A program made the translations under genes and the position numbers. A DNA stretch of 64,000 bases from Candidatus Multivoradales bacterium (lineage in GTDB: Bacteria > Acidobacteriota > Thermoanaerobaculia > Multivoradales > JAHEKO01): NCBI GenBank assembly GCA_965248055.1, contig CBDFIJ010000004.1, forward strand, positions 960,001-1,024,000, read 5' to 3'. This document shows positions 13,158 to 45,663 of the stretch, one piece after another; position 1 is the first letter of the stretch, and every line of letters starts with the position of its first letter. The notes below the pieces were generated by a model. That model ran no database searches and was not told the DNA's origin. It saw only the letters and a program-made list of their open reading frames with translations.

Positions 13158-13925
13158 GTGGCAACTTGGGTTATTGGCGACGTGCATGGCTGCTACAAGC
13201 CGCTCAAGAAACTGGTGCGTCGACTCGAACTGAAACCACACAAAGACACCCTGTGGATGACGGGAGATTTGGTCAACCGGGGCCCCAAGTCGGACCGAGT
13301 ACTACGCTGGTCTATCCAGCGCGAACAGCAGTTAGGGGATCGATTTCAAGTGGTCTTAGGCAACCATGACCTGCACGCACTGGCGGTTCACTACGGGGTC
13401 CGACGCGCCAGACAGGGAGACACCCTAAAGGTGTTGATGAAGGCTGACGACCGCAAATCGCTGATGGATTGGCTTGTCCGTCGACCGTTTCTGGTTCGCC
13501 AGGGAAAACAAGTCCTGGTCCACGCCGGCTTGCTGCCGGAATGGACACCGAAAAAGGCGGAGCGGATCGCCAGCCAACTCAGCGGGCGGTTGATCGCCAA
13601 CCCCAAGGCATTCCTCAAGGGCAATAAGCTCGGGGATCGCCAGAAAGACGCCCTGGCAGCGTTGACCCGCCTGCGGACTCTCAACAAAGCTGATCGACCC
13701 GGCCGCTACAGCGGACCTCTGGACAAGCTACCCAAGGGACTGACGCCATGGTTTCGCCATCCCGAACGAAGAAGCGCCAAAGCTCGTATCTTGTGCGGCC
13801 ACTGGGCGGCCCTCGGGCTGCATCAAGAGGCAAATGTCAGCGCACTCGACACCGGTTGCGTCTGGGGTGGAACCCTGACTGCCATCAGGCTGTCGGACGG
13901 CAAGATCATCCAAGAGCCTCGCTAG
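13158..13925 (+). CDS. apaH: Symmetrical bis(5'-nucleosyl)-tetraphosphatase
   Basis: IGDVHGC, GDLVNRGP, LGNHDLH, VHAG, GHWAALG, LDTGCVWGG. Confidence 0.93.
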   Translation: MATWVIGDVHGCYKPLKKLVRRLELKPHKDTLWMTGDLVNRGPKSDRVLRWSIQREQQLGDRFQVVLGNHDLHALAVHYGVRRARQGDTLKVLMKADDRKSLMDWLVRRPFLVRQGKQVLVHAGLLPEWTPKKAERIASQLSGRLIANPKAFLKGNKLGDRQKDALAALTRLRTLNKADRPGRYSGPLDKLPKGLTPWFRHPERRSAKARILCGHWAALGLHQEANVSALDTGCVWGGTLTAIRLSDGKIIQEPR

Positions 13926-13993
13926 CAACCGGCGGAGGTTGTCAAGGTATCGGAGGGCTTTCAGTCAGGCTGGCGCATGCTACCGTTTGGGTC

Positions 13994-16813
13994 ATGAAAA
14001 TCCGACTTGCAGTTCTCACCACCGTTCTTGTCTTGGGTTGCCGCACGGGGGCTCCGGTAGCCGACTCATCGGCGGACCACCCGGAGCAATCGCGGTTTGG
14101 CACTTTGCAGTTTGTCGGCGCGATAGCGCCTTCCAGCGCGCTGGAAAACGCCAAGATCGGTGGACTCTCGGGGATTGTGTGGGACGGCCAACGAAGTCTG
14201 CTACTGGCGATCTCCGACGATCCTGGCACCCATGGCGACCCGAGATTTATTGAGTTCGAGCTGCAATTGCCTTCGGACCAACAGGCTGGGTCTTGGACCG
14301 CAAGCCGCGCCGTGACGCTATCCACATCGGACGGCGAGTCTTTTGTCCACGACACGATTGACGCTGAGAGTATCGACTTGTTCGGTGAAGGGTTGGTCAT
14401 TACCTCGGAAGGGGGCAAGCAGGGCCAACCCTTTGTCCGCACCTTCGACCTAGAAGGCAACCAGATCGAGGTTGTATCCATGCCCAGCTACATGCTGTAT
14501 GGCGAAGACGTTGGCGCTAGACCCAATATGGCGATTGAATCCGTTAGCGCGTTGCCCAACGGAACTCTGTTCGCCGGGTTTGAGAACGCGCTAGTTCAAG
14601 ACGGGCCAGCAGCTTCGGTCGATCAACCCAGCCCAGCAAGAATCTTGCGTTGGCAGGGTAAGGGTGCGGCTGAGTTTGTCTATCCGACCGACCCAGTGGT
14701 CGACGCCCCCCTGCAAGAGGGAGGGTTCCACACCAACGGACTGGTGGAGCTACTTGCCCTCGATGACCAACATTTGCTGGCGCTCGAGCGATCCTACACA
14801 GCCGGTTTTCTGGTTCACGTGCGTCTTTATTCGGTCGATCTTTCTCAGGCTACCGACGTCTCCGCCACCAGTTCCATCGGGGACTCGTATCAGCCGGCAG
14901 CAAAAACACTGCTCGCCGACTTAGACGACCTGGGCTTCAACGTTGACAATCTGGAGGGGCTTGCGTGGGGGCCGACGATGGCCGATGGCCGCAAGAGCCT
15001 GCTGATGGTGTCGGATGACAACTTCAGCCCGTTGCAACGCACCCACCTCTTGGTCTTCGCAGTGGGCGAAAAGACACCGACCATCAGCCAAATCCAAAGC
15101 GCAGGTCACAGGTCTCCCTTTGAAGACCAATGGCTGTTTGATGTTGCAGGCACCGTCACCCAGGCAGTCGAAATCGCGGAACGACCCGGGCTGGCGTGGA
15201 TCCAAACCAGCGGAGACCAGGACCTGAATACCTCCGACGGCCTGCGCATCCGCTATGACTGGAGCGACGTTTCGCTGCGTCCCGGCGATTCGATCGTCGT
15301 CAGTGGCCAACTCAGAGAAGAAGGTCGAGAGGGCGAGCTCTCGGTGACCACCTTGACCGCCAACACAGTGATGGTCACTGGAACCGACGACATTCCTGCC
15401 GCAGTCTCTCTGGACCCACAAGTCGAGCTAGCCAGCGCCGCGACTAGACCGTTTGGTGATCTGCCCTTGGACGATGACGCAATGAACACGTTCAGCCCAG
15501 AGCAAAGCTCTGTCGACCTTCTAGAGTCGCTGGAAGGGATGCGGGTCACTATCTCGGAATCCACTTCGGTCTCTGGGACTTCTCGATTCGGAGAAATCGT
15601 ACTGTCGCCCGGTGGGGCGAACGGGGTGCGATCGCAGGCTGGCGGTGTCGTCTTGACCCCAGAATCTTTTAACTCACAGCGACTGGTCGCGGTGAGCGTT
15701 GGTGCGACGCAGTCGCCGACGGTCAAAGTGGGAGATTACTTTGAGCGGCCGATCACCGGCGTGCTGGACTACAGCTTCGCCAACTTCCGGCTCCGAGTCG
15801 AAGACTGGCCCACACCAACATTAAGAGTGCTTTCCGAACCACAACCTCTGTGGGACATCTACGACGACGACTTCACTTTTGCCACCTACAACGTCCTCAA
15901 CCTAGATCCTGAGGACGGCGAACAATTTGACCAAGTCGCTATTTCGATCGTCGATCAACTGTTGTCCCCGGACGTTTTGGCGCTGCAGGAAATCCAAGAC
16001 GACAATGGGGCAAACGACGAAGGAGTCACCTCGGCCAATCTGACCCTGACGATGCTGATTGAGGCGATCCAGATTGCTGGAGGTCCCGACTACGCCTACG
16101 CCCAAATCGACCCGCTGCACAACGCCGAAGGTGGTCAGCCGTTCGGCAATATTCGCAACGTCTATCTCTATCAACCAGATCGGGTTCAGCTGATCAAGGA
16201 CGGTCATGCTGACTCAGATACCTCTATTATGGTGGCACCCGACGGGGGATTCGACCCAAGCCCGGGACGGGTGGCGGTTGAAGATCCGGGATTTGCCGGA
16301 GATCTTAATCGGGGCTGGGAAGCCAATCGCCCCTGTTTGGCGGCAGAATTCTTGGTGTCGGGTGACCGATGGCAGTTCATCAACTGCCACCTCAAGTCGA
16401 AACGCGGTGACGATCGCCTATTTGGCTCCAACCAGCCACCAGTTTTTCATACCGAAGGTCAGCGCAGCGCGCAGACTCAATCACTGGCATCAGTCGCTGA
16501 GGAAGTGCTACTAGCCAACCCGGAGGCCAGACTGGTGGTATTGGGCGACACCAACGAGCACGATTTCCGCGCTCCGATTGCGGAACTCACTTCCGTTGGG
16601 TTGGAAAACCTAGTTGAGCGGATACCGCAGGCCGAGCGCTACAGCTACAACTTCAACGGCAACTCGCAGCTTCTGGATAATGTCCTGGTCAGCCCGGCGG
16701 TCGTCGAATGCTCGCCCGAAGTCGCCATAGCCCACATCAACGTCGACTTTCCCGACGCCGGACGAGCCAGCGACCATGACCCGATCGCAGTGCGTGTTCC
16801 GTCCTGTGATTAG
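13994..16813 (+). CDS. Lipoprotein fusing a phytase-like esterase domain to an OB/ExeM-like region and an endonuclease/exonuclease/phosphatase domain
   Basis: GGLSG, AISDD, LALERS, NLEGL, VSDDNF (phytase-like); TYNVLN, ALQEIQDD, HLKSK, GDTN, LDN, SDHDP (EEP); lipobox LGC. Confidence 0.85.
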   Translation: MKIRLAVLTTVLVLGCRTGAPVADSSADHPEQSRFGTLQFVGAIAPSSALENAKIGGLSGIVWDGQRSLLLAISDDPGTHGDPRFIEFELQLPSDQQAGSWTASRAVTLSTSDGESFVHDTIDAESIDLFGEGLVITSEGGKQGQPFVRTFDLEGNQIEVVSMPSYMLYGEDVGARPNMAIESVSALPNGTLFAGFENALVQDGPAASVDQPSPARILRWQGKGAAEFVYPTDPVVDAPLQEGGFHTNGLVELLALDDQHLLALERSYTAGFLVHVRLYSVDLSQATDVSATSSIGDSYQPAAKTLLADLDDLGFNVDNLEGLAWGPTMADGRKSLLMVSDDNFSPLQRTHLLVFAVGEKTPTISQIQSAGHRSPFEDQWLFDVAGTVTQAVEIAERPGLAWIQTSGDQDLNTSDGLRIRYDWSDVSLRPGDSIVVSGQLREEGREGELSVTTLTANTVMVTGTDDIPAAVSLDPQVELASAATRPFGDLPLDDDAMNTFSPEQSSVDLLESLEGMRVTISESTSVSGTSRFGEIVLSPGGANGVRSQAGGVVLTPESFNSQRLVAVSVGATQSPTVKVGDYFERPITGVLDYSFANFRLRVEDWPTPTLRVLSEPQPLWDIYDDDFTFATYNVLNLDPEDGEQFDQVAISIVDQLLSPDVLALQEIQDDNGANDEGVTSANLTLTMLIEAIQIAGGPDYAYAQIDPLHNAEGGQPFGNIRNVYLYQPDRVQLIKDGHADSDTSIMVAPDGGFDPSPGRVAVEDPGFAGDLNRGWEANRPCLAAEFLVSGDRWQFINCHLKSKRGDDRLFGSNQPPVFHTEGQRSAQTQSLASVAEEVLLANPEARLVVLGDTNEHDFRAPIAELTSVGLENLVERIPQAERYSYNFNGNSQLLDNVLVSPAVVECSPEVAIAHINVDFPDAGRASDHDPIAVRVPSCD

Positions 16814-16917
16814 GGTTTATCAGGGTCGGGGTGAGGCCACGCCAGCGTACTGAGGCCATAGACGGCGTCCGGCTCGCTCGGAACCAGGATCAAAAAGAGC
16901 CGACACTGCAATTTGCG

Positions 16918-17088
16918 CTAGAAGGGTTCAACCTCAACATACAAGCTAATTTGCACCTTACCGACGCGTGAAGGAGGCGGCTGATAACCACCTTCGACCG
17001 CGGTAGCTATGTTGGGTTGCTCTGGCCGGGGTGGCACGCCCGCAGTGTCACGCAGAGCTTCACATAAGATCTGCTTGCTTCTTGCCAT
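16918..17088 (-). pseudogene. Possible truncated ribbon-helix-helix (ParG-like) small protein remnant
   Basis: 56-aa ORF MARSKQ...YQPPPSRVGKVQISLYVEVEPF* followed in frame by RKLQ; resembles the start of an RHH fold. Confidence 0.3.
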
Positions 17089-17199
17089 TGTGTTTCGCCC
17101 TTATTTTTCCCGGGAGTGACAATGCTCCATGCTGCGATGATGGAACATTTAAAGGGAGCCTTGCCGTGGCTGTCAGCGCTGCTCAAGTTGTTTGGGTTG

Positions 17200-18195
17200 C
17201 TAGACGATGAGTGGGAGGTCGTCGGCTAGCGAGCGGCCGTCCTCGTCGGCGATGCGGTAGCAGGGCGGGAACGGCGAGTTTCGAACCTGGTGGGCCTGGC
17301 CGGAGTGGTAGACCTCCGAGAAGGTCTGCTCGCCGACGTTTCCCATCACCGTGTAGTCCTTGGCGATGTCGCACCCCAGGACGTTGAGCTTGGAGTCGAT
17401 CTGTAGGTGCGATAGGCCCGCCGAGCAGGAGGCGCAGTCGAAGCTCGCCGTCTCCTCCATCGAGAATTCCGCCCTTGCGACGGCCTGCCCCCGCGACCTC
17501 AGTTGGACGCGCAAGGACGGCAGGAGCAAGTCCGGTGGAAAGCGCTTCGCGTACTCCCCCAGGTGGGTCCAGAAGTCGTCGGCGTCGTCCTCGTCGAGGA
17601 GCAGCTCCGGGTGAAGCAACGCCTGTTCAGTCCGTTGCACATTCAGAAAATGGAACCGCTTCACCCGCGGATAGAACGCGTCGATCATCAAGTGGACCTT
17701 CGACAGGTTCAGCTTGTGGACGACGCAGGCCAGTTGCAGGTCGATGCTCGATGCGGCAACGCGTTCGATGGTTGCCACGGCGCGGTCCGTCTCGCCCCGC
17801 ACCACGTTGTTGACTTCGGGATCAGGCGAATCGAGCGAGATCTGCAACATGAAATTCGTCAAATCGGTGTTCTCTTCGAGGACGCGGATCATGTCCGGGT
17901 CGATGGCCACGCCGTTCGACAGGACACCGACCCGGATGCCTCGTCGAGTACCGTGGAGGATGAGTTCTAGGATGTCGGGATGGAGGAACGGCTCACCACC
18001 GGCCAGGGTGATGTTGAACACCCCGATGTCCGCCATCTCGTCGATCAGCTCCAGAGCGCGTCGGGTGCCGATGCGGCGCCCTGAAAAGGGCATGGCGTAG
18101 CAGTATTTGCAGGCCAGGTCACAGTAGTCGGTGATCCACATACACACCGTAAACGGTGCGCGCAGGGGTGACCGGGTCTCTGGGACTTTCATCAT
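17200..18195 (-). CDS. Radical SAM peptide maturase (PqqE/MftC/SkfB-like) with short Twitch/SPASM-like C-terminus
   Basis: CDLACKYC, AGGEPFL, LSNG, QISLDS; C-terminal CASCSAG..GCD..GNV..PC; GAGGAG RBS. Confidence 0.9.
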   Translation of the reverse strand: MMKVPETRSPLRAPFTVCMWITDYCDLACKYCYAMPFSGRRIGTRRALELIDEMADIGVFNITLAGGEPFLHPDILELILHGTRRGIRVGVLSNGVAIDPDMIRVLEENTDLTNFMLQISLDSPDPEVNNVVRGETDRAVATIERVAASSIDLQLACVVHKLNLSKVHLMIDAFYPRVKRFHFLNVQRTEQALLHPELLLDEDDADDFWTHLGEYAKRFPPDLLLPSLRVQLRSRGQAVARAEFSMEETASFDCASCSAGLSHLQIDSKLNVLGCDIAKDYTVMGNVGEQTFSEVYHSGQAHQVRNSPFPPCYRIADEDGRSLADDLPLIV

Positions 18196-18227
18196 GCTCT
18201 CCTCAAGCGGCTGGTTGGAAATCGACG

Positions 18228-18488
18228 CTAGGTGCCTTCCGGGCTCAGCGTGGGCAAAATCGACTGCTCGTGCAGGTAGTCCACGAACCTCTTGACGTCC
18301 TTTGCGCGGAAGTCGGTCGACCTGAAGCTGCGAAGATCCTGCTTGCGATCTCGGTACGCAGCCCGCAAGTCATTAAACAGCCGGAAGCCGGATTCGTTTA
18401 CTCTATATACCGTGTCTGACACGGTGTCGTACAGGATGCCTCCGAAGTCCTCTTCCCTGGTTTTGATGTTTTCGAACGGTTCGGCCAA
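18228..18488 (-). CDS. Stand-alone PqqD/MftB-like RiPP recognition element (RRE)
   Basis: 86 aa; REEDFGGILYD...VYRVNESG...DVKRFVDYLHEQSIL pattern; lies between precursor and radical SAM gene. Confidence 0.8.
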   Translation of the reverse strand: MAEPFENIKTREEDFGGILYDTVSDTVYRVNESGFRLFNDLRAAYRDRKQDLRSFRSTDFRAKDVKRFVDYLHEQSILPTLSPEGT

Positions 18489-18509
18489 ACTGGCCGCGAG
18501 GACAGACTC

Positions 18510-18941
18510 TCACGTGCCGGTGTTCTGAGCCCACTGGGCCACCCAGCTGTTGTGCGCCCATTGGGCTCTCCATGGGAGGACGGAGGAGGAGGCCGATGGC
18601 ACCTGGTCGAGGATGTCGGGGTCGAACTCGGCCAGTGGCACCTTCTTGGCGGCGAGTTGCTCGGTTCCCAGCGAGGCCAGGACTTTCTCCGTTGGAAACT
18701 CGCCACCGGTTAGGTGCGGCTGCTTCGTGACCCCCTCCGGTGGGAGGTCCGCGTCGGCGATCCGATTCCGGGAGAACACCTGCGTCTCCACCTCCCGGAA
18801 GGCGCAGACCCTGTTGCTCTTCAAGTCCACCCGTGCCTCCGAGCGTTTCTTGAGAAAAGTGGTATGTCCCTTGTCGACCGGAAATTCCTGGTTGAGGGAG
18901 TACATAAACAACTCGATGTGCGGGGATTCCTGTCCCTTCAT
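18510..18941 (-). CDS. Putative RiPP precursor (143 aa) with Trp-rich duplicated C-terminal core
   Basis: Strong RBS (GAGGAGG) before ATG 18941; ends ...VLP-WRAQWAHNSWVAQWAQNTGT*. Confidence 0.75.
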   Translation of the reverse strand: MKGQESPHIELFMYSLNQEFPVDKGHTTFLKKRSEARVDLKSNRVCAFREVETQVFSRNRIADADLPPEGVTKQPHLTGGEFPTEKVLASLGTEQLAAKKVPLAEFDPDILDQVPSASSSVLPWRAQWAHNSWVAQWAQNTGT

Positions 18942-19008
18942 AGCTCCGCCTCCTCTTGAAAGTGCGTTGTTGGTCACCTAATGGAATATCACACAAAAGA
19001 GGCCGATG

Positions 19009-20063
19009 TCAAATTCCTGTATGCGTCCATGACATTTGGCACTGATCGGTATGTTCAGCTACGTATTGTAACGGTGGTCTTTGTCCGTGGCTCCAGTGGG
19101 GCCTTTCGGCGTTAAACCAGAGCATCCAGTCGAAGAGTTTTTGGTTGAAAGCTTGGAGGTCAGTGAAGAGCAAGTCTTCGTTGTAGTCAACGAATTTCTC
19201 TTGGATGGTTCGATTGAATCTCTCGGCTTGGGCGTTCATCTTCGGGCATCTGGGGTAGGTGTACCAGCGTTTGATTCCAGCCTCAGCAGCTTTCTTGTCG
19301 AAGGCTCCTTGAAACTCACTACCGTTGTCTGAGAGCACGGTAGTAACAGCAAATGGCAAGACATCAAGGCTCAGGTCCAGAAAGCGCGCTGCCGTGCTCG
19401 AGGTGTGGGAGTTGGTGGCTATTGCAGCAGACTCATGCTGCTGGCGGCATCGGTCAGAGTGATCAAGTACCGGCGTTGGCCATCACAGAATCGCTCGATG
19501 GTATCTACTGCCACCCACTGGCTAGGCGAGCATGCCTTGGTTCCTTTAGGTTTGCGAGGCTTACGCTTTCGTTTTGCTTTCACTCGACCCAGGCGATCAA
19601 TCCTTTGAGGCACCAAGCGCATCTTGTCGGGAGCATCGCCAATGATGCGGCCGATGGTGCTCACCGAGGGGCAGGTAATTCCCCTTACTTCACACCAGGG
19701 TTTCAACAGCGGATAGATCTTGTCCTTGCCAAGATTGGGCTCTTTGACTCGCAATCGACCGATCTCAGAGACCACCTCAGCTGGCCACTTGCGCCGTCTT
19801 CTTTTCTTCGGAGCTGTTGATTGAGGGTTTAGAGAGGTTAGCTCTCCTTTGCACCTACCAAGACAAGACTTCCAGCGGTACAGAGTCCTCCGGCTCACCG
19901 AAAATGCATCGATCGCTGCATCGATCCCATGCTCCTGCCAGAATCTCAATGCTCGGATACGTTTCTCAGCGCTATCTTGGGTCATGACCCAAGATACCCC
20001 TAGATGACGAAGATGTCCCAGGCCTTGGAAACGCCCTCTGATCAACCTCATGCTCAGCGACAC
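19009..20063 (-). pseudogene. IS481-family DDE transposase split by an apparent 1-bp deletion near 19430
   Basis: HTH (VSRRTLYRWK) and VAVDT in one frame; LSDNGSEF, PKMNAQAERFNRTIQE, FNAERPH in the other; adding one base at AGT CT^GCT GCA ATA GCC joins them. Confidence 0.85.
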
Positions 20064-20103
20064 TCCTCATTGAACGAGTGCCATTTGTTTCTGAACTTAT
20101 GCA
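19018..20103 (-). mobile_element. IS481-family insertion sequence (1086 bp)
   Basis: Imperfect terminal IRs TGTATGCGTCCATGACATTTGGCAC and TGCATAAGTTCAGAAACAAATGGCAC; 5-bp direct repeat ATTCC at 19013-19017 and 20104-20108. Confidence 0.85.
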
Positions 20104-20166
20104 ATTCCCGGCGCTAGGCGAACCCCCAAGAAACCTTAGAGCCTCGAGTTCGGGGACTGTTCTCTT

Positions 20167-20193
20167 ACACAAGAACATACTGTGTTTTTGTGT
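20167..20193. promoter_or_regulatory. Operator-like inverted repeat
   Basis: ACACAAGAACA-N5-TGTTTTTGTGT (1 mismatch) in AT-rich DNA just beyond the IS. Confidence 0.35.
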
Positions 20194-20420
20194 TTGCCAA
20201 AGTAGTAGTTCTTGAAGCCTTTTGCCAGAATCATCTCTGGCTATGACTAAAGCTCACCGGAGGCGAGCAGTGATGGAGCTCTCCCTAGCCAAGCGCTTCG
20301 CTTTGGCACAGAGGAAGTCCGATCGCCGGGAGTTACAACTATCGTCCAATCAACAGCCATCCGAGTCTAGGTATCAGGCTCGGGCTTACCGTAGGGACGG
20401 TATCTGAGTTGGGTGCCGAC

Positions 20421-20993
20421 CTAGCGCTCGTGACCGATGCGCCAAGTCAATCCGGTACTGATGCTGAAGTGGAACGAATCCTCATCAAACAACTCTGCGG
20501 AAATGGCGGACAGCTCGACCCGCGTTGCCATACGCTTGCGCCAACCAAAGAAGAACCGCGAGCCAATCGCGATCTGGTAGGCCGAGTTGTCGTCGCTGAT
20601 CACCGTGTCAAACGCCTCGAAGTCGGCATTCATTTGGCCGATGCCAAGCAGCACATAGGGAACGGTCCCCTGATTGGGATGAAAGTTGAAGAGCCCGTTG
20701 ATGAAGATCATGTCGAAGTCAGCGTCGATATCGCTGTCGCTGTTGAAGGCAACAATGTACTGACCCTCCAACTCCAAACTGTCGGTGAACATGTATCCAC
20801 CGCGAGCATCAAGTCGAATGGCGTTTCCGCCGTCCAAGATCTCGTCACTCGAAACGTCCAAGAACATGGTGCCCAGGTTGAGGCCAAGCTCGCCGTTAGT
20901 CCTAGCCAAAGGCTCGGTTGCAAATGCGGCAGTTCCCAGCAGTCCGGCCAAAAGGCACAGCGTTACCGCTCGTAGAATCAGTCTTACTTTCAT
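20421..20993 (-). CDS. Outer membrane beta-barrel protein (OmpA-like/porin family)
   Basis: Signal peptide MKVRLIL...AFA; alternating beta-strands, PYVLLGIG, terminal GLTWRIG. Confidence 0.8.
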   Translation of the reverse strand: MKVRLILRAVTLCLLAGLLGTAAFATEPLARTNGELGLNLGTMFLDVSSDEILDGGNAIRLDARGGYMFTDSLELEGQYIVAFNSDSDIDADFDMIFINGLFNFHPNQGTVPYVLLGIGQMNADFEAFDTVISDDNSAYQIAIGSRFFFGWRKRMATRVELSAISAELFDEDSFHFSISTGLTWRIGHER

Positions 20994-21084
20994 TGTTGTA
21001 GCCCCTAAGAATCGGCAATGGAGAACGCACCCAGTGCGCCCAAAACGATATTTTACGGTCTGATCAGCGCTTGACGCAAGCGGA

Positions 21085-21984
21085 CTACCAGCTGCCGGAC
21101 GATCCGCCGCCGCCAAAGCTCCCACCGCCACCGGAAAATCCGCCACCGCCACCGCTCCATCCGCTGGACGAAGACCAGCCGCCGCCAGACGTCCATCCTC
21201 CGCCACCGCGACCAATGCTGCCACCAATGCTGGAAAACAGAGCGCGCAGGATCGGGAAACCGATCACCCAAGCCAGCAGCAAGATCCACGACCAGGGCTG
21301 CCCTAGGGTTACCCATGGGACGACAAACCAAAACGGCATCATGAAGAAGTACGGGATCCAGCCCTTCGCGCCCCGAATGCGCAACAAGTTGAAGGAAAAG
21401 AAAGCCAAGAACCCCAGTAACGGCAGGGCACCGGTTCTCGCCGGGTTCGCAGTCCGGACCGCAGGCGCTGGTAGCTCTCCGCCTTCGGCTAAGGTCACCA
21501 ACGCATCGACCCCGGCTTCAACCCCCCCGCCAAAATCACCATCGCGGAATCGCGAAGCCATGATGTTGTCCAAAATCCGCCGTGAGTGGGCGTCGGTAAT
21601 GGTTGGCTCAAGACCGTAGCCAACTTCGATCCGCATGCGCCGGTCCTGGGAAGCGACAATCAAGATCACTCCGTCGTCCACACCCTCGCGGCCAATCTTC
21701 CAGGCATCAGCGACGCGAATTCCCAAATCTTCAATCGGCTCACCCTCAAGGCTGGGAATCGTCAGCACTACGATCTGGGTACCCCGCTCTCGCTCCAGGC
21801 GCTCAAGCCTCGACTCGATGCTCTGCTCTTCAGAAGGCGGAATGATCTGGGCAAGATCGTTGACCCGCCCGTTGAGAAACGGCACCTCGATCTGGGCAGC
21901 CGCGGCAATCGGCAACGCCAGCCAGACGCAGAAGATCAGGCGCCGAACCACCCGACGCCTAACGATCATAGATCCGTGGCTCAT
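21085..21984 (-). CDS. TPM domain protein (YgcG family) with Gly-rich tail
   Basis: GRVNDLA, WKIG..DDGV, RIEVGYGLE, GGGFSGGGGSFGGGGSSGSW. Confidence 0.93.
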   Translation of the reverse strand: MSHGSMIVRRRVVRRLIFCVWLALPIAAAAQIEVPFLNGRVNDLAQIIPPSEEQSIESRLERLERERGTQIVVLTIPSLEGEPIEDLGIRVADAWKIGREGVDDGVILIVASQDRRMRIEVGYGLEPTITDAHSRRILDNIMASRFRDGDFGGGVEAGVDALVTLAEGGELPAPAVRTANPARTGALPLLGFLAFFSFNLLRIRGAKGWIPYFFMMPFWFVVPWVTLGQPWSWILLLAWVIGFPILRALFSSIGGSIGRGGGGWTSGGGWSSSSGWSGGGGGFSGGGGSFGGGGSSGSW

Positions 21985-22615
21985 TGCTCAACTCGTCGAT
22001 GTCATCGTCGCGTCGGGGAACTTTGTGCTGTGCCAAAATGCGACCCAGCTCTTCCACCGCCCGCTGGATCGTCTCCCCGCGTTTGCCGCTCTTGAGATCC
22101 CTGGTCAGGTTGTCGATCACTTGATCCCACACCGACTCTTCGACTCTTCGGCGAATCCCCTCGTCGACCAGTACTTGCACCCGATGTTCAAAAAGCGCGA
22201 TAAACAACAACACCCCGGTGCGATCGACGGTGGCGAAGACTTCCTCTTCGACAAAGGCAACCGAAGCCCGCCTCGACACCCGCAAGGCCGCCAATTGCGG
22301 GTCGACTAGATAGCGCTCGAGAACCGGAATCAGTCGGGTTACGCACCAGCCCAAAACCAAACCAGCCAGAACGATGCCGATCATCCAAGCTGGCCCCCAC
22401 GGAATCCACGCACCCCAGTTGATCATCCCCACCGCAGCCAGGGAGACTGCGGTCAACGCTCCTAGCGCGGCGCCACGCCACGCAGCCTCCGGGTAATCGT
22501 CGCAACGACGGACAATGACACACACCAACTCACCACCGGTGAGTTGCTCAGCCTGCTCGGTGGCGTCGCGAATCGCGGTGAGATCCGCGCGGGAGAAAAA
22601 CGACCGAATGCGCAC
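21959..22615 (-). CDS. TPM-like membrane protein of lemA operons
   Basis: AEQLTGGEL, RTGVLLFIALFEHRV..DEGI, DELSNE. Confidence 0.85.
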   Translation of the reverse strand: MRIRSFFSRADLTAIRDATEQAEQLTGGELVCVIVRRCDDYPEAAWRGAALGALTAVSLAAVGMINWGAWIPWGPAWMIGIVLAGLVLGWCVTRLIPVLERYLVDPQLAALRVSRRASVAFVEEEVFATVDRTGVLLFIALFEHRVQVLVDEGIRRRVEESVWDQVIDNLTRDLKSGKRGETIQRAVEELGRILAQHKVPRRDDDIDELSNEPRIYDR

Positions 22616-22623
22616 AGACGAGC

Positions 22624-23211
22624 TTAAAACTCGACCTTGGGTGGTTCATTGGCCCCAGGAGTCGACTCGAAATAGGGCCGTTGGTCGAAACCGAACATCT
22701 TGGCGAGGATCAGTGCAGGGAACTCCTTGATTGCAGTGTTGTAACTCCGCACAGAATCGTTGAAACGTCCACGTTCAACCGCAATTCGGTTCTCCGTGCC
22801 CTCCAGCTGCACCTGAAGGTCGCGAAACGCCTCGGTCGCTTTTAGTTCTGGGTAGCGCTCGACCACCACCAATAACCTCGACAGGGCACCGGATAGTCCG
22901 TCTTGCGCTTGCTGAAACTCGGCGAGCTTCGCCGCGTCCGGTGGCCCCTCAAGGTTGATCTGGCTGATCTTGGATCGAGCCTCGACAACTTGGATCAAGG
23001 TTTCCTGTTCAAAGTCAGCGGCGCCCTTCACCGTGCTAACCAGATTCGGAATCAAGTCAGCGCGCCGTTGATAGGCGTTCTCGACTTGACTCCAAGCTCC
23101 GTCCACCGACTCTCGAAGACCCACCAGTCGGTTGTAGTCGCAGCCCTGTAAGGACAATGCGAGTATCGAGACAGCCGCAATGCTAATAATTTGTGTGCGG
23201 TTGGATTGCAT
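22624..23211 (-). CDS. lemA: LemA family protein
   Basis: YQRRADLIPNLV, VERYPELKA, QLEGTENRIAVER. Confidence 0.95.
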   Translation of the reverse strand: MQSNRTQIISIAAVSILALSLQGCDYNRLVGLRESVDGAWSQVENAYQRRADLIPNLVSTVKGAADFEQETLIQVVEARSKISQINLEGPPDAAKLAEFQQAQDGLSGALSRLLVVVERYPELKATEAFRDLQVQLEGTENRIAVERGRFNDSVRSYNTAIKEFPALILAKMFGFDQRPYFESTPGANEPPKVEF

Positions 23212-39799: not shown

Positions 39800-40863
39800 G
39801 GTGGCTCAGGGCGGTCCAGAGAGACCAGCCCAGAAGCGGTAACCCCGAGCAATCGCACGCCACGATCAGCAGCTTCGGAACGTTTGTAGAGCTGCCCGGT
39901 GGTCTCTGCGATCAGGTCGGCCGAAGCGGTCGGTGTCGACAGAGTCAGAGCGCGGGTGATGGTCTCAAAGTCTGGATAGCGCACCTTGATCGACAGGGTG
40001 CGCGCCGTCAGATCTCTTTTTTCCAAGCCCCTAGCGACTTTCTCAGCTAGGTTGGAAAGCTCCTCCAGCATGCCTTCGCGATCGTTCATGTCCTGACCGA
40101 AAGTCCGCTCACAGCTCAGACTTTTCCGCTTACGTTCTGTGGATACCAAACGATCATCTTCCCCGTTGGCGAATCGGTGTAAGACAGTACCGAACTTACC
40201 GAATCGCTGCTCCAAGGCTGTGCGTTCGGTTTTCCTCAGCTGGCCGACGGTATGGAATCCGAGATCAATAATGCGGGCCTCAGTCGCCGGACCCACTCCG
40301 CGCAACGCCCGTACCGGCAGCGGATCCAAGAAGTTCTGCACTTGTTCGGGCTTCACCACAGTCAAGCCATCGGGCTTATCGTGATCGGAAGCGATCTTGG
40401 CAATCAATTTGTTTGGCCCCACGCCCACGCTGACGGTGAGGTCGAGTTGCTGCTGCACTCTGCGTCGAATTTCTTGCGCTACCGCGGTCGCCGAACCCCA
40501 AGGCTCCAGATGATCGCTGACATCCAAATAAGCTTCGTCGATCGACACCACCTGCACCAAAGGGGTGAACTCGCGAAAAATCGAAGTCACCTCCGCAGAG
40601 ACCTTGCGATAACGAACAAAATCACTGCGCAAGAAGATCAACTGCGGGCACAATCGTAGTGCCCGAGCCGAAGGCATAGCAGAACGGACGCCAAAGGCTC
40701 GGGCCTCATAGCTTGCGGATGCAACTACTCCACGCCCCCCGGGGTCACCCCCGATGGCCACCGGTTTGCCGCGTAACGAAGGGTCATCGCGCTGATGAAC
40801 CGAAGCGTAGAAAGAATCCATATCGCAGTGCAGGATGCGACGTACTTGATCGCCTTTTTCCAT
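39748..40863 (-). CDS. dinB: DNA polymerase IV
   Basis: HCDMDSFYASV, SYEARAFGVRSAMP, SIDEAYLD, KIASD..KPDG, VRLLGV. Confidence 0.96.
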   Translation of the reverse strand: MEKGDQVRRILHCDMDSFYASVHQRDDPSLRGKPVAIGGDPGGRGVVASASYEARAFGVRSAMPSARALRLCPQLIFLRSDFVRYRKVSAEVTSIFREFTPLVQVVSIDEAYLDVSDHLEPWGSATAVAQEIRRRVQQQLDLTVSVGVGPNKLIAKIASDHDKPDGLTVVKPEQVQNFLDPLPVRALRGVGPATEARIIDLGFHTVGQLRKTERTALEQRFGKFGTVLHRFANGEDDRLVSTERKRKSLSCERTFGQDMNDREGMLEELSNLAEKVARGLEKRDLTARTLSIKVRYPDFETITRALTLSTPTASADLIAETTGQLYKRSEAADRGVRLLGVTASGLVSLDRPEPPQMSLLFEDSKSFEDSK

Positions 40864-41064
40864 CGCCTAACTCTACGGTAGATGTGTCATAGGTCACACT
40901 ACCCGGCGGCCCGTTCAGCCGACAATCTCACAAAGAAAATCGCGGCCTGGATGGTGAGTTCAGTTGGCATCACAATTCCTTCCAGCATATTTGTCGAACT
41001 CAATCCGATCTATTACTCTGTCCCGATGTTCTTGAACGCAAAGGATCCCCGATAGGATAGATCC

Positions 41065-42333
41065 ATGTCGAGTGAGATTCCGACGGACACCGCCGTGGAG
41101 CCGACACCGTGGTACAGAAGGCCACGTTTTCTGGGTATCCTCGCCATCGTTGCGGTCGCAATCATCGTCGGCTCGTATCTCCGCCAGCACCCTGGCACCG
41201 GGCGGATTCTGGCACAGGACATAGAAGTCGCCGCTGTTCACCGAGGTGAGTTCGTGAATGAACTCTCGACTTTATGTGATTTTCAACCGAACTCATCTTT
41301 CAAGCTCGATACGGCCGACGGAGGCCGCGTCGTAATACAGTATGTTGAAGCCAGCGCGGTGGTTGACAAAAACCAGTCGATCTTGCTGCTAGACAATCCT
41401 GAACTTGAATCCGAGCTAATGAGGCGCACCGCCGAACACCTGGAGCATTTGAGCGCCCTTGCCACGCTTCAGCTAGAGTTCGAGAGACTCGATCTGGAGA
41501 TTAACGAGCGGCTCATCAGCCTTGAAGCTGCAGTCAGACAAAGAAGTGAGACACACAATAGGCTGACCAAACTCGTGGTAGCCGGACTCGTCGCGCAGTC
41601 CGACTTTGAAGAGTCTGAAAACGAAATCGCGCGACTGACACATTTGATAGAAACGGTCCAAATTTCGAAAAGGCGTACTCACCAAGTACGGGATCGCCAG
41701 CTCGAAAGTACTGAGCAGTCGGCCGAAGCGCTCAAAGGCCAACTTGAGAGAATTCAGCGGCGAATAGACGCGCTGCAGATTCGAGCGCCTGCACCGGGGC
41801 TCCTGGCATTGATCGATGTGCTGCCCGGGCAACAATTGCAGCCCGGGGCTGAAATTGGAGAGGTGTACACTGAGGGAGATTTTTCCATCCGCTGCGCTAT
41901 CGATGAGAGGTACCTTCAGGATATTGAAGTCGCCACAACCAAAGCTGAGCTGGGTACGCCAGAACACTCATACCAGCTTGGAGTCACTAGCGTTTTTCCG
42001 ACCGTGACCAACGGGCGTTTCGTGGCCGAGTTGGGGTTTCTTGGTGATCGGCCCGAAAAGATGAGCAAAGGACAATCCGCTCGCCTCCGCATCGCGCTGC
42101 GTTCAGCGGGTGAGCGCCTGCTACTGCCAGTTGGAGACTACCTCCGAGAATCTGGAGGAACCTGGGTTTTCGTCCAGCAAGGCGACCAGGGTACCGCAGT
42201 CAAGAGAGACGTACGCATGGGCAAGCGCAACAGTTCTTCGGTTGAGGTTCTTGGTGGGTTAGATGAGAAAGAGTTAGTCATCATCTCCAGTTACGCCAAT
42301 CTGACGCAGTTTGAAACTCTAGAGATCGACTGA
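41065..42333 (+). CDS. Efflux periplasmic adaptor (membrane fusion protein, MacA/HlyD-like)
   Basis: N-terminal TM, GGRV, coiled coil, IRAPAPG, VEVLGGL..VIISSY. Confidence 0.88.
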   Translation: MSSEIPTDTAVEPTPWYRRPRFLGILAIVAVAIIVGSYLRQHPGTGRILAQDIEVAAVHRGEFVNELSTLCDFQPNSSFKLDTADGGRVVIQYVEASAVVDKNQSILLLDNPELESELMRRTAEHLEHLSALATLQLEFERLDLEINERLISLEAAVRQRSETHNRLTKLVVAGLVAQSDFEESENEIARLTHLIETVQISKRRTHQVRDRQLESTEQSAEALKGQLERIQRRIDALQIRAPAPGLLALIDVLPGQQLQPGAEIGEVYTEGDFSIRCAIDERYLQDIEVATTKAELGTPEHSYQLGVTSVFPTVTNGRFVAELGFLGDRPEKMSKGQSARLRIALRSAGERLLLPVGDYLRESGGTWVFVQQGDQGTAVKRDVRMGKRNSSSVEVLGGLDEKELVIISSYANLTQFETLEID

Positions 42334-42349
42334 CGCAAGGGAGCGGCTA

Positions 42350-43030
42350 ATGATACAAACCGACCAGCTTACTCGGATCTATCACACAAAATATGTAGAG
42401 ACCGCTGCCCTACAGCAAGTCAGTCTCGACATTAGTGAAGGAGAGTTCGTCTCACTAATGGGCCCATCTGGCTCAGGGAAATCAACTCTACTGCGCATTC
42501 TCGGGCTTCTCGATCAGGCTACCTCGGGAAGCTATCTGTTAGATGGCTCAGAGACGGTTGACCTTTCGCCAGCGTCAAGACACAAGATAAGGCTCGGCAC
42601 AATTTCTTTCGTGTTTCAGGATTTCTGCCTGATTGATGATCTCACCATCGCGCAGAACGTTAGTCTTCCCTTGCGCTATCAAGGAGTGGCGCGGGAAGCG
42701 ATTCGCGACAAGGTCGAAGCCACAATAAGCTCAGTCGGGATCTCGCACAGACAGCGACACTTTCCCTCTCAATTGTCTGGCGGCGAACAACAGCGAGCCG
42801 CGATTGCCCGCGCCTTGGTGACCGAACCCAAGCTACTTCTGGCCGATGAGCCTACCGGCAATCTAGATCAACAGACCGGCCTAACCGTACTCGAACTGCT
42901 TAGCGACCTAAACACCAGCGGTTGCACAGTCGCCATGGCAACCCATTCCCAAGAATGTGCCGCTTTTAGCTCGCGCGTAGTTACACTAAAAGACGGCCGT
43001 GTCGCGGCGGATACAGGTCAGAGTGAATAG
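42350..43030 (+). CDS. ABC exporter ATP-binding subunit (MacB/LolD-like)
   Basis: [27 protein letters not shown]. Confidence 0.95.
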
Positions 43031-45386
43031 GTTCGAACTCAACACCGCTCTGAAGAGCTTGGTCAGAAACTGGCCTTCTACCGTCTTGAGCATGGTCGTT
43101 CTCGGAGTATGTAGCGCAGCTTTCTTCCTCGTGGCGTTCTTCGCGATTCGTGAGTATTCATACGAACGATGGTTACCCGGCTACAGACAAATCTACCGAA
43201 TCTGGCTTGAGCTAGAGGAACCCGGCGAACCGCTTCGAGTAGCTGTCACCCCAGTACCTCTCGGCCCAACCGTTGCGGAGCAAGCCCCGCAAGTAGAAAG
43301 CTACACTAGGCTTTTGAAATATCCTCGACGACCAGTACTCGTTGAAGCTGGCGGGCTCAGATTTTTTGAAGAAGAAAACTTCTTCACCACTGATCAGAGC
43401 TTCTTTGATGTCTTTCGAATCTCGCTTGTCCGCGGTGACACACCTACCGCGCTAACCGGTAGCGACTCCCTGGTGATTACTGATCGTGCAGCCTTCAAGT
43501 ACTTTGGAACACTCGACTGCGTCGGGCGAACGATGCTGCTTAACAAAGAAGACCTCAAGACTGTTACGGGAGTGATGTCCTCGCGACAAGGACCCACCCA
43601 TCTTGTTTACGACTTTCTGGCGAAGCATCCTCCGGACCCTGCGCCCAACTGGTACCAGTTCAAAGCACGCACCTATGTTCGGTTTGCTCAGGAAGACAAT
43701 CGCGGCAGGGTGACGGACATTTTGCGCAGGATTGAACTCGACAAATACGGAGTCGACGCGTCCGACTACCACTACCATCTCCAGCCAATCGATGAGATCC
43801 ATCTCAATTCCAATTTCTTGGGAGAATTCCCCGGAGCTGGATCTGCTGCGACAGTACGTACTGCGATCTGGGCAGCGTTGATATTCCTCGCCCTCGGAGC
43901 CACCAATTTCGCTGTCTTCGAGGCCGTACGCCAGAGTACTCGAGCCAAGGAAACGGTGATTCGAGTTGTTAACGGAGCCTCCAGTCGTCAAGTATTGGCT
44001 CAAGCTATCGTCGAAGGGCTAATCGTTGCATCGATTAGCGTACTAATCGGCCTGTTCGTTTATTGGGTGGGTGGATTTCGTCTGATCGGCCTGCCAGAAG
44101 CCAAGTTCCAGCTGCTTGCCAGCCAGGAAAGCTGGTGGATTCTCGGAGCTATTGGCTTGGTTATAGCAGTGGTCGTGTTGGCGGCCTCCATCTATCCAGC
44201 CTACGTGGCCCTTAAGGTCGATCTTTCCGGGGTGACCAAGGGGACCTGGAGAAAACGCTCGGGACGTCTATCGATTCGACGATTTCTAGTAGGCGTGCAA
44301 TTACTGATCGCTTTTGTCCTCGTCTTTGCCAGCTTCAGATTAACCTCGCAGGCCCATCAGCTCTCTCAGCTCTCTGTCGGTTTCTCAACTGCAGGCCTGA
44401 TGGAGGTAGAGCTTCCGCGCAGCACGCAGATCAGCACCCAAAACCTGCGCGACCTAGTGGGTCGAGACCCGCTCGTAACTAAAGCGTCTTTGGTCTCCCA
44501 AGCCCCGGGTAGTGCTCTCAGAAAAGCGTCATTCATACCGGAAGGCAACGGTGCCGAGCACGTTATGGCCAGCGTCCTTTGGGGTGACGAGTATCTGCCA
44601 ATGGTCATGGAACTCAAGCAAGTGGCCGGCCAGAGTTTTGGTGTTGACTCCCAAGCAAATAGAGAGTCGGCATTCATCATCAATGAAAAAGCAGCATCTA
44701 TTTTTGGCTGGGAGAATGCTGTTGGAAAGCGACTCACACTAGATTCTGATGAAGACACCCTGGAGGGATCGGTGGTTGGCACGGTGGCAGATTTTCATTT
44801 CGGCTCAGTTGTCGAAGTTATCGACCCGATCGTGATCATGTACGCACCTGACAAGGCACAGAAAATTTTGCTACGAACCAAGCCAAATACCAGTGATCCA
44901 AAAGCAGTACTCGAAGCGATATGGAGACAAGCGATCCCCGGCGAACCTCTGAGAGCAATCGACACGTCCGCCAAACTCGACAATCTCAATCAGTCCAATC
45001 ACCAACTGGCGCGTGCAGGGAAACTTGTCGCCAGTAGCGCTAGCCTAGTTGCCGCACTCGGCCTCGTGGCGCTGATCGCGGTGTTGCTTACCGCCAAGAC
45101 TCGTGAAATCTCTATACGCAGGCTATGCGGAGCCTCGCAGGAGCGCCTGATCGCAACCCTAGCTGGCAAACTGGGCCTCTTGGTCGCGATTGTCGGAGTT
45201 ATTGCGATACCAATTGGCTCTCAACTAGTCTCACAAGTGAACGAAATCGTCGAATCCGAAGTGAAGGTCCTGATCGTTGGGTACTTTCTGGTAATTGGAC
45301 TGTTCGAGGCACTGCTCGTTGCAACAACAGCCTTATTTCTATGGAGGCGGAGGGATCGTTCGATTGTTGACGGTTTCATGGATTAA
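43023..45386 (+). CDS. ABC exporter permease with duplicated MacB-PCD/FtsX domains
   Basis: About 790 aa; LQPIDEIHL, RAKE..IR...GA, FIINE, VVGTVADFHF, TREISIRRLCGA. Confidence 0.88.
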   Translation: MNRFELNTALKSLVRNWPSTVLSMVVLGVCSAAFFLVAFFAIREYSYERWLPGYRQIYRIWLELEEPGEPLRVAVTPVPLGPTVAEQAPQVESYTRLLKYPRRPVLVEAGGLRFFEEENFFTTDQSFFDVFRISLVRGDTPTALTGSDSLVITDRAAFKYFGTLDCVGRTMLLNKEDLKTVTGVMSSRQGPTHLVYDFLAKHPPDPAPNWYQFKARTYVRFAQEDNRGRVTDILRRIELDKYGVDASDYHYHLQPIDEIHLNSNFLGEFPGAGSAATVRTAIWAALIFLALGATNFAVFEAVRQSTRAKETVIRVVNGASSRQVLAQAIVEGLIVASISVLIGLFVYWVGGFRLIGLPEAKFQLLASQESWWILGAIGLVIAVVVLAASIYPAYVALKVDLSGVTKGTWRKRSGRLSIRRFLVGVQLLIAFVLVFASFRLTSQAHQLSQLSVGFSTAGLMEVELPRSTQISTQNLRDLVGRDPLVTKASLVSQAPGSALRKASFIPEGNGAEHVMASVLWGDEYLPMVMELKQVAGQSFGVDSQANRESAFIINEKAASIFGWENAVGKRLTLDSDEDTLEGSVVGTVADFHFGSVVEVIDPIVIMYAPDKAQKILLRTKPNTSDPKAVLEAIWRQAIPGEPLRAIDTSAKLDNLNQSNHQLARAGKLVASSASLVAALGLVALIAVLLTAKTREISIRRLCGASQERLIATLAGKLGLLVAIVGVIAIPIGSQLVSQVNEIVESEVKVLIVGYFLVIGLFEALLVATTALFLWRRRDRSIVDGFMD

Positions 45387-45482
45387 GCACTACTACCAAG
45401 GTGTTACACCTTGATTTGGCGTTACAAATTGAAGGCTAACCCCATCCACCGGGCAATTATCGGAAGCGAAGCATACGAGAAT

Positions 45483-45511
45483 TTGACTTGCGCTGGGAAA
45501 AAGCCTACATT
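45483..45511 (+). promoter_or_regulatory. Putative sigma70 promoter for the 26-aa ORF
   Basis: TTGACT-N17-TACATT. Confidence 0.55.
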
Positions 45512-45582
45512 TGAAGCGTTAGTTAACAGAGGGCGTTGGATTGAGTCGCCGAGTCGTCCTCGCAACGAAAGGAGAACGACCA

Positions 45583-45663
45583 ATGCTCACACTTATCACG
45601 ATGGTTCTTACCGCCGATCACGAGACTGCCGGATCCGACGCCAAGGGTGGTGTCGAACTCTAG
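45583..45663 (+). CDS. Putative 26-aa peptide MLTLITMVLTADHETAGSDAKGGVEL
   Basis: AAAGGAG RBS 8 nt before ATG; upstream promoter; downstream hairpin AGTTCCT-N6-AGGAACT. Confidence 0.45.
   Translation: MLTLITMVLTADHETAGSDAKGGVEL

Follow-up and report, generated by a model that had tools for sequence, protein, structure and literature searches.

The locus examined here raises the question of whether a tryptophan-rich peptide and a PqqD-type domain, encoded in front of a radical S-adenosyl-L-methionine (rSAM) enzyme gene, are the products of two genes or of a single gene interrupted by an in-frame TGA that is read as selenocysteine (Sec). The window, by which the whole analysed stretch of 64,000 nucleotides is meant, comes from Candidatus Multivoradales bacterium (Acidobacteriota; GenBank assembly GCA_965248055.1, contig CBDFIJ010000004.1, positions 960,001 to 1,024,000). 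On its minus strand, between 17200 and 18977, three co-oriented open reading frames (ORFs) of 143, 86 and 331 amino acids (aa) follow one another with spacings of 21 nt and 32 nt, in agreement with the original prediction, made from the letters alone, of three tightly packed genes. The first two stand in one reading frame, with only the TGA and seven codons between them. The same prediction had taken them for a separate 143-aa precursor and a stand-alone recognition element (RRE) of a pathway for peptides that are made on the ribosome and modified post-translationally (RiPPs). Comparison with homologous loci speaks for a single polypeptide instead, and the locus is best described as one of rSAM- and RRE-dependent peptide modification in which the substrate has an unusual architecture and probably a Sec codon.

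A two-gene cassette with a fused partner protein

When one genome per species was scanned, 24 loci were obtained. The rSAM enzyme was found at 43-85% identity in 22 of them, the other two (L028 and L029, at 25-28% identity) being left out from then on, and a complete partner ORF lies directly upstream of the rSAM gene in 21 of the 22; L026 ends at a contig end and only the RRE part of its partner is visible. The rSAM-partner arrangement is far from chance. The loci that can be read across the junction also number 24, namely the window, two metagenome contigs (L030 and L031) and 21 loci of the scan. In 18 of these (L009-L025 and L027) the partner is one continuous ORF of about 170 aa (~165-190 aa), on which account the division into precursor and stand-alone RRE had to be given up. 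In the other six (the window, L006, L007, L008, L030 and L031) an in-frame TGA, probably recoded, stands between the two halves.

The fused ORFs are carried by Brevibacillus, a Chroococcopsis plasmid (L012), Stappia, Salinarimonas and other Alphaproteobacteria, Nitrospirota, an Acidobacteriaceae metagenome-assembled genome (MAG), Thermodesulfobacteriota, Desulfurivibrio and relatives, and Melioribacteraceae. They share an N-terminal motif, P-x-IELYMYSLNQEFP-x-GKGH-x-TFLKR, a middle motif, D-W-x-x-Q-W-x-x-N-x-W-[IV]-x-[ND]-[HYW]-T-K, and a PqqD-like domain at the C-terminus. A profile of the partner matches 165 database proteins, and 118 of the 120 partner homologs listed contain the Trp motif W-x3-4-W-x4-W. 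The original prediction had supposed that the Trp tail would be conserved among homologs and co-located with the rSAM gene, and both are the case: three Trp residues (W124, W128 and W133) show no variation in either the fused or the split forms, and the tail always adjoins the rSAM gene in the examined loci. In an all-against-all comparison of ORFs of at least 80 aa from 23 loci, the only genes common to the lineages were the partner and the rSAM gene (plus shadow ORFs). Moreover, the relatives of the rSAM enzyme number 298 in the database at E 1e-3 or better, and their names never go beyond "radical SAM protein".

The cassette is rare and very sporadic. Among 401 sampled genomes of the phylum it was found in its own genome only and not in the same-genus genome G317, and a metagenome scan for members of the window clade gave two loci. 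The ortholog L012 is on a plasmid and several orthologs adjoin transposase genes. No description of the family, of a leader, core and RRE in a single chain or of a PqqD-family selenoprotein was found in the literature searched, the supplementary tables, which may list such rSAM enzymes, being outside its reach; a search with the motif strings gave chance matches only, and "PqqD" is absent from the 2026 selenoproteome review. We lean slightly towards the view that the cassette is a two-gene system of an undescribed rSAM family with a self-chaperoned Trp-repeat substrate.

The in-frame TGA as a candidate selenocysteine codon

The clade to which the window belongs is set apart by a fourth Trp unit, a leader insert of ~50 aa and the TGA itself, which comes after ...NTGT or ...YTNT. 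The TGA is found at the same aligned position, in frame with the RRE, in all six DNA loci of this clade, three of which are Acidobacteriota MAGs. An in-frame UGA with conserved coding sequence downstream of it, which is one of the marks of a selenoprotein gene, is thus present in 6/6 loci. In L008 and L031 a TGG replaces the TTG start of the 86-aa ORF, and no canonical start in frame is met before codon 33, which lies inside the RRE. A start at this codon would cost the domain its first two strands, yet the region evolves as coding sequence: between L008 and L031, codons 8-19 differ by five synonymous changes and one non-synonymous change.

A hairpin resembling a bacterial Sec insertion sequence (bSECIS) lies downstream of the TGA and has, like the genome's own fdh SECIS, G23-U24 in its loop; its free energy (dG) is -8.6 kcal/mol, to be compared with -9.0 for the SECIS of an Fdh-like gene of the same genome (loop at nt 22) and -8.3 for that of its selD (loop at nt 21). 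PMC13188914 describes a bSECIS as having a loop of 3-9 nt with a G among its first two nucleotides, a stem of at least 4 bp, a distance of 16-37 nt from the UGA and a minimum free energy of -7.5 or lower. Under a strict test, in which the stem has to be contiguous, these features are present in four of the six loci (dG -8.6, loop GUU at nt 23) as well as in the fdh and selD SECIS of the genome. The control set consisted of the 1147 TGA stops of ORFs of at least 200 aa in the same genome, of which 23 (2.0%) passed the generic test and four (0.3%) the strict one. L008 and L031, at -6.9, miss the contiguous-stem threshold and reach -8.9 and -9.8 when the lower stem is included; in both, the 5-bp stem is kept despite three substitutions, with the 3' strand shifted by one base. 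A search of positions 17000-19200 with Rfam gave 0 matches at E 1 or better.

The source organism is a Sec user. Its genome contains a tRNA-SeC (C4:2576758-2576856) and SelB (340.9 bits, cut-off 242), and an in-frame TGA followed by a hairpin with a GGUC loop occurs in the Fdh-like gene (C4:1911516-1912262, minus strand) and in selD (C4:1264931-1265854, plus strand); its SelD is itself a selenoprotein. In addition, the Cys homolog that is looked for in a selenoprotein family is provided by one protein, P0276, a 203-aa fused homolog of the four-Trp type that reads ...WLQNADYTNT-C-EPFYAAAFSDPLANVKVREEDFGG and whose Cys is aligned exactly to the TGA. These observations make it probable that the UGA is recoded, most likely as Sec. 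As termination competes with Sec insertion, full-length and terminated products may be made side by side.

The Trp-repeat segment as candidate core

The tail of the 143-aa ORF reads ...WRAQWAHNSWVAQWAQNTGT up to the TGA (given also as ...PWRAQWAHNSWVAQWAQNTGT, the last residues being ...NTGT), and its Trp part can be divided into WRAQ-WAHN-S-WVAQ-WAQN. The original parse into four contiguous four-residue units has to be corrected for the extra Ser between WAHN and WVAQ, the Trp spacing being 4, 5, 4, while the W-x-x-[Q/N/D] periodicity behind it holds across the wider family. Beside the three Trp residues named above, W137, A126, A135, Q136, N131 and N140 are invariant in 27 split-type proteins. 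The Trp core is free of Cys, and C46, the one Cys found in the 143-aa part, is unconserved, which sets the peptide apart from sactipeptides and ranthipeptides.

A profile search over 1.84 billion representatives showed the partner family to be small, with 128 hits at E 1e-3 or better, 41 at 1e-10 and 20 at 1e-30. In 40 distant relatives the N-motif and the RRE motif are kept and the Trp-rich segment between them differs. Some of them carry trains of W-x-x-[N/D/Q] with up to 7-8 Trp, others trains of W-x-N, such as WNNWNNWDNWNNW or WNNWNNWDNW. Among these 40 proteins, 45 Trp-Trp spacings are of 4 and 34 of 3; Trp is preceded by N (52), D (20) or Q (19), and the number of Trp repeats in relatives ranges from 2 to 10. 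Conserved flanks around a middle that is variable and nevertheless constrained in composition correspond to the pattern of leader and core.

In four alphaproteobacterial loci (L013-L016) a homolog of flavin-dependent halogenases is encoded directly upstream and in the same orientation. Pfam Trp_halogenase is matched with 306 bits in L013 and 290 bits in L014, L015 and L016 join them by BLAST cluster, and GxGxxG and WxWxIP are present in all four. In L013 the halogenase, partner and rSAM genes stand between the housekeeping genes mutL and rsmD-like. This co-occurrence suggests that the pathway acts on peptidyl-Trp. Considering its conservation and its behaviour in distant relatives, there is a good likelihood that the Trp segment is the substrate of the rSAM enzyme.

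The N-motif and the recognition domain

The 143-aa ORF has no Pfam or NCBIfam match, and the 86-aa ORF reaches 15.2 with MftB (TIGR03967, cut-off 33) and has no Pfam match, its RRE being assigned via homology (40% identity) to the domain of the Nitrospirota ortholog L017. PqqD-family NCBIfam matches of 13 fused orthologs are all below threshold, and Pfam PqqD matches five of the 13, with a best E of 2.3e-5. A search of PDB sequences with the partner profile gave nothing below E 0.08.

The fold was predicted with AF2 on the L017 partner, using an alignment of 69 rows. Residues 90-164 are modelled as beta-beta-beta-alpha-alpha with a pLDDT of 94-98. When this part was compared with 48,161 chains by VIA-align, TbiB1 with its leader came out on top (Z 7.1, rmsd 2.4, 69 residues aligned), followed by ThcOx, TfuB1, TigE, MccB, CteB, PbtF-RRE, TbtB, LynD, SuiB and PqqD, and RiPP RRE domains occupy most of the top of the list. 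In the model the PqqD/RRE part thus has the RRE fold, and the original assignment of the 86-aa part as PqqD/RRE-like holds good through its homology to the L017 domain. Foldseek with the whole partner model found no PDB match at E 0.001 or better, only meaningless rows of PH domains, because low-confidence strands spoil the query.

The model has, in addition, a confident short N-terminal strand (residues 9-13; the first block of 10 residues has a pLDDT of 86), and the region 52-83, which includes the equivalent Trp segment (W64-W73), remains below 50. The N-motif is highly conserved, with P7, E10, L11, Y14, S15, Q18, E19, F20, P21 and H26 invariant in alignment A2. The presence of a confident, isolated strand in a model of one chain suggests packing of the N-motif against the RRE sheet, in the way known from leader peptides. 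Prediction of a complex of rSAM, RRE and 143-aa peptide, scoring 0.57, 0.68 and 0.48 as against 0.51 with the rSAM replaced, returned "no answer" and was left unused as evidence.

The radical SAM enzyme

The 331-aa enzyme belongs to the rSAM superfamily (Pfam PF04055, 76.7 bits, cut-off 29.5), its CxxxCxxC motif being CDLACKYC with C24, C28 and C31 invariant. It begins directly at the rSAM core and has no RRE of its own. The C-terminal domain matches SPASM (PF13186) with 25.1 bits, the cut-off being 21.5. A full SPASM domain has seven Cys for two clusters; here only four C-terminal Cys are invariant (C253, C256, C274 and C311), enough for one cluster, which would make the domain a Twitch-like or abridged SPASM domain.

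The AF2 model of the enzyme (pLDDT 86.3) has SuiB as its best Foldseek match (E 3e-16, TMq 0.74) at a sequence identity of 16-19%, with viperin-like enzymes, anSME, SkfB, CteB, ChlB and PqqE after it. ChlB is found among PDB sequences with E 1.7e-4 over the core only and is at Foldseek rank 24. That the enzyme would match no known curated family was foreseen correctly, as all NCBIfam models stay below their cut-offs: MftC scores best (TIGR03962; 82.5 vs 265), and GeoRSP (79 vs 400), PqqE (TIGR02109; 67.3 vs 381.35) and SbtM (61.6 vs 350) come after it.

Proposed mechanism

We infer a mechanism in which the first gene would encode a self-chaperoned substrate in which the N-motif (IELYMYSLNQEFP..GKGH) is followed by a core of Trp repeats (W-x-x-Q / W-x-x-N) and, at the C-terminus, by a PqqD-type RRE. 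In the window clade the UGA would lie three residues past the core (…WAQN-TGT-UGA), and its decoding as Sec would yield a selenoprotein of ~237 aa, while termination at it would release a free 143-aa peptide. The second gene would encode the rSAM enzyme without RRE and with one auxiliary-cluster domain of the SPASM/Twitch type. The N-motif would bind to the RRE in the form of a strand, acting in cis where the protein is fused or read through and in trans when the chain ends at the UGA. Docking of the RRE on the rSAM enzyme, as established for PqqD with PqqE and MftB with MftC, would then feed the flexible Trp segment into the active site. There the 5'-deoxyadenosyl (5'-dA) radical may take a hydrogen from an sp3 carbon of the Gln, Asn or Asp in each unit, and this carbon would couple to the Trp indole, the auxiliary cluster taking up the electron. 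One cross-link per unit would give three in most homologs and four in the window.

This cross-link chemistry is put forward tentatively, and on present evidence some other outcome of the reaction has to be considered the likelier. There are precedents for it. SuiB, whose fold is the nearest, joins Lys to Trp. DynB forms a Trp-Asn C-C link, according to PMC10288494, and triceptides carry Omega1-X2-X3 motifs in which an aromatic residue is cross-linked to a C-beta by a 3-CyFE, as PMC11499958 describes. With respect to selenium, PMC10177961 reports that in PapB and Tte1186 the substrate Se binds the Fe of the auxiliary cluster and Se-C links are formed. As most of the family has neither Cys nor Sec, the shared core chemistry cannot depend on either of them.

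Alternative explanations

The most serious alternative, although an unlikely one, is that the UGA is a true stop. An ancestral fusion would have been split by a stop codon into a free 143-aa precursor with a C-terminal core, which is the canonical RiPP layout, and an RRE made separately from the TTG, perhaps by termination-reinitiation; the rSAM chemistry would be the same. A number of observations are on its side and weigh against Sec. Database homologs of the 143-aa ORF, with identity down to 39%, are called as ending at the TGA position in 27 of 29 cases, these endings being gene calls whose stop codons were not read. The TTG, eight codons past the stop, is kept in four of the six loci including the window, and gene callers start an 81-86-aa RRE there (a 12-member cluster). 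P0276, the sole Cys homolog found, is a singleton cluster; Cys takes up two of the eight sense codons that are one base from TGA, so that a chance change from stop to sense is not negligible, and Cys stands at the TGA position in none of the non-acidobacterial fused homologs aligned. A clear coding pattern is not seen in the seven codons that directly follow the TGA. The hairpin is short, and RNAalifold, run on the six post-TGA sequences in fixed register, found it with 0 compensatory pairs, the register shift being visible only when each sequence was folded alone. SelB is present in all the L006-L008 genomes and in 4/4 carrier genomes overall, which says little when 95 of 121 genomes of the phylum sample have it (a tally that takes in G027 and G052, flagged as unpublished); the Sec machinery is necessary but weak evidence. 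Termination is nevertheless difficult to reconcile with L008 and L031, where no canonical start precedes codon 33 and the region evolves as coding sequence, with a TGA in 6/6 loci, with a SECIS-like hairpin that has the distance of the genome's own SECIS and is met at only 4/1147 control stops, and with a genome that decodes Sec. A disabling mutation in a cassette decaying beside an insertion sequence would suit the IS481-family copy 76 nt upstream of the ATG and the fact that no cassette was found in the same-genus genome, but it is effectively refuted by conservation, as the same TGA occurs in 6/6 loci of a clade divergent to 39% identity, both halves of the partner are conserved and the rSAM gene is intact.

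The role of the Trp segment can also be read differently from that of a modified core. In the main clade its motif is conserved across phyla, which is unusual for the core of a natural product and could likewise be explained by a cofactor precursor or by an element serving structure or binding. Moreover, while a conserved N-motif and a variable Trp segment were seen, as would be expected of a RiPP precursor, no conserved protease or exporter was found by Pfam among 68 neighbour ORFs, and the release of a peptide is left unexplained by this. It is accordingly conceivable, if improbable, that the partner is an adaptor or chaperone only, PqqD-family proteins being chaperones; the Trp motif would be structural, at a membrane interface or rSAM-binding, and the enzyme would act on an unlinked peptide, a protein or a small molecule. 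No further gene is conserved with the rSAM-partner pair, however, and the Trp segment behaves as a core, varying in distant relatives in which N-motif and RRE persist; it is also predicted to be floppy, is separable from the RRE in the window clade and co-occurs with halogenase homologs in four loci. A redox cofactor comparable to PQQ or mycofactocin, made from an invariant Trp (tryptophylquinone-like or as a cross-linked indole) or from E10-x3-Y14 of the N-motif, is quite improbable. MftC, MftB and PqqE are the closest sequence relatives, all far below cut-off, and MftB clusters are the nearest in ESM (0.90, a lead only); the motifs show high conservation, no exporter accompanies the two genes of the cassette, and E10 and Y14, which are invariant in alignment A2, have the spacing of E-x3-Y, the cross-link motif of PqqA. 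These points have to be set against a Y14 that is lost in distant relatives, 2 to 10 Trp repeats that are ill-suited to a single cofactor, a cassette as sporadic as 1/401 phylum genomes and not found in the same-genus genome, and the lack of a dehydrogenase or other cofactor-using partner gene conserved nearby.

Features of the locus

Coordinates of the features of the rSAM cassette in the window
Feature	Coordinates	Strand	Remarks
Radical SAM enzyme, 331 aa	17200..18195	-	CDLACKYC; Pfam Radical_SAM + SPASM
PqqD/RRE-domain coding region	18228..18509	-	In frame with upstream ORF
86-aa stand-alone RRE ORF	18228-18488	-	TTG start 18486-18488
SECIS-like hairpin CGGCC-AGUUU-GGCCG	18482..18496	-	nt 17-31 from U of UGA; G23, U24 in loop
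In-frame TGA between Trp core and RRE domain	18510..18512	-	Candidate Sec codon, or leaky/genuine stop
Partner-protein N-terminal 143 codons	18513..18941	-	Leader-like region, ~50-aa lineage-specific insert, Trp core
Trp-repeat core W124-N140 (WRAQWAHNSWVAQWAQN), proposed modification site	18522..18572	-	Alignment conservation
Conserved N-motif P7-R33 (PHIELFMYSLNQEFPVDKGHTTFLKKR), proposed recognition (leader) segment	18843..18923	-	Alignment conservation
Shine-Dalgarno AGGAGG	18949..18954	-	7 nt before ATG at 18941
Sigma-70-like promoter match TTGACA, 16 nt, TG-GATATT	18985..19012	-	10/12, consensus match only

The sigma-70-like match, a consensus match only, was the one site found where 0.5 were expected from shuffles, and its place fits a start at the ATG. 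The context aagaggagg-N7-ATG is also present in L006 and L007. An alternative GTG at 18977 would give a 155-aa version of the first ORF.

Genomic context

In comparison with G317 the window region ~16798-20421 has no counterpart, the flanking phytase-like and outer membrane protein (OMP) beta-barrel genes being ~25 bp apart there, which indicates an accessory island or indel. The IS481-family element upstream of the cassette (19018-20103, 76 nt upstream of the ATG) is bordered by 5-bp GGAAT target duplications at 19013-19017 and 20104-20108. About nine full-length copies with 88-99% identity are present in the genome. The others encode an intact transposase of ~350 aa, whereas in the window copy a frameshift divides it into parts of 214 aa and 116 aa. 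On the other side, convergent with the rSAM gene, 13748-16813 (plus strand) encodes a 1021-aa protein with a phytase-like esterase domain (PF13449, 237 bits) and an endonuclease/exonuclease/phosphatase domain. The envelope genes at 20421-23211 (minus strand) encode an OMP beta-barrel, LemA and two proteins with TPM domains, of which one has a tail rich in Gly and Ser; LemA-TPM is a common cluster. The GC content is 0.53-0.55 at 40001-46000 and 0.57-0.61 elsewhere in the window, and this part may be another acquired segment.

Some neighbours of the cassette in other genomes can also be mentioned. On the Chroococcopsis plasmid an ORF resembling peptide beta-hydroxylases of the aKG-HExxH type (L012:272-1414, plus strand; 42.1 bits, cut-off 40) is located ~2 kb upstream of the cassette, past a DDE transposase gene. 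It may be a tailoring enzyme or a coincidence and, because the transposase gene separates it from the cassette, it was not counted in the system. In the Desulfurivibrio-like L021-L025 (minus strand) genes for S-adenosylhomocysteine hydrolase and SAM synthetase are found just downstream of the rSAM gene; since these genomes are closely related, this may reflect nothing more than synteny. In L017 and L020 large ORFs follow the rSAM gene; they show no relation to one another, and no family was found for them.

Significance

Peptides modified by rSAM enzymes rank among the chief sources of antibiotics such as darobactin and of novel cross-link chemistry. A conserved poly-Trp substrate with 3 to 10 repeat units would be added to them here, and the family with W-x-x-N/D/Q or W-x-N repeats would, if the proposed chemistry is right, form a new class of peptides or proteins with poly-Trp cross-links. 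With the recognition domain carried by the substrate itself, the way in which such systems are mined would also have to change, since peptide finders that look for a short ORF beside an RRE would miss 18/24 loci. The system is compact, with two genes, and convenient for tests by co-expression.

The window clade would probably constitute a new selenoprotein family as well, one in which gene callers split a single gene into two "hypothetical proteins". With Sec available the product would be a self-chaperoned selenoprotein of ~237 aa, and without it a free 143-aa precursor ending just past the Trp core. The Sec or Cys beside the core might ligate the auxiliary cluster of the rSAM enzyme or join in a Se-C link. 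Whether all of this comes together, as the first Sec-containing PqqD/RRE member, the first RiPP-type substrate with leader, core and recognition element in one chain and a UGA acting as a selenium-dependent switch, is doubtful enough to be offered as a possibility with the odds somewhat against it.

Comparison with known systems

Mycofactocin is similar in its layout of a peptide, a PqqD-type chaperone and an rSAM enzyme without RRE; MftC and MftB are the best NCBIfam matches, and clusters of MftB are the nearest ESM Atlas neighbours, although the latter is a lead only. The differences are considerable. The scores are far below the cut-offs given above, the peptide of the window has a Trp-rich core and ends in ...NTGT without the C-terminal Val-Tyr, substrate and RRE are one polypeptide here and no genes like MftD, MftE or MftF are conserved nearby. 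The score with PqqE likewise keeps the enzyme apart from the PQQ pathway.

The streptide enzymes SuiB/StrB couple a Trp ring to an unactivated sp3 carbon (Lys-Trp), and SuiB is the nearest fold to the model of the window enzyme. In SuiB an N-terminal RRE belongs to the enzyme itself, and the SPASM domain is complete, with two auxiliary clusters. The window enzyme, unlike it, starts at the rSAM core and keeps only the four invariant C-terminal Cys. In triceptides, dynobactin and darobactin, aromatic-X-X repeats are cross-linked from the ring to C-beta, to which the W-x-N repeats of distant partner relatives can be compared. The units of the window and of the main clade, in contrast, have four residues (W-x-x-Q/N), ChlB is a weak relative, and as far as the literature search shows no triceptide precursor fused to an RRE is known.

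A likeness to SbtA/SbtM, which form a thio(seleno)oxazole, and to PapB and Tte1186 lies in the action of an rSAM maturase on a Sec- or Cys-containing peptide. The window enzyme is far below the cut-off of SbtM, and most of its family is without Cys or Sec; a Sec or Cys just after the core is, judging by the aligned sequences, a trait of the window clade only. For a RiPP core placed on the chain of its own maturation machinery, the only analogy that can be named is that of the borosins. In borosins the core is fused to its own catalytic methyltransferase, whereas here the fusion partner would be a non-catalytic recognition domain.

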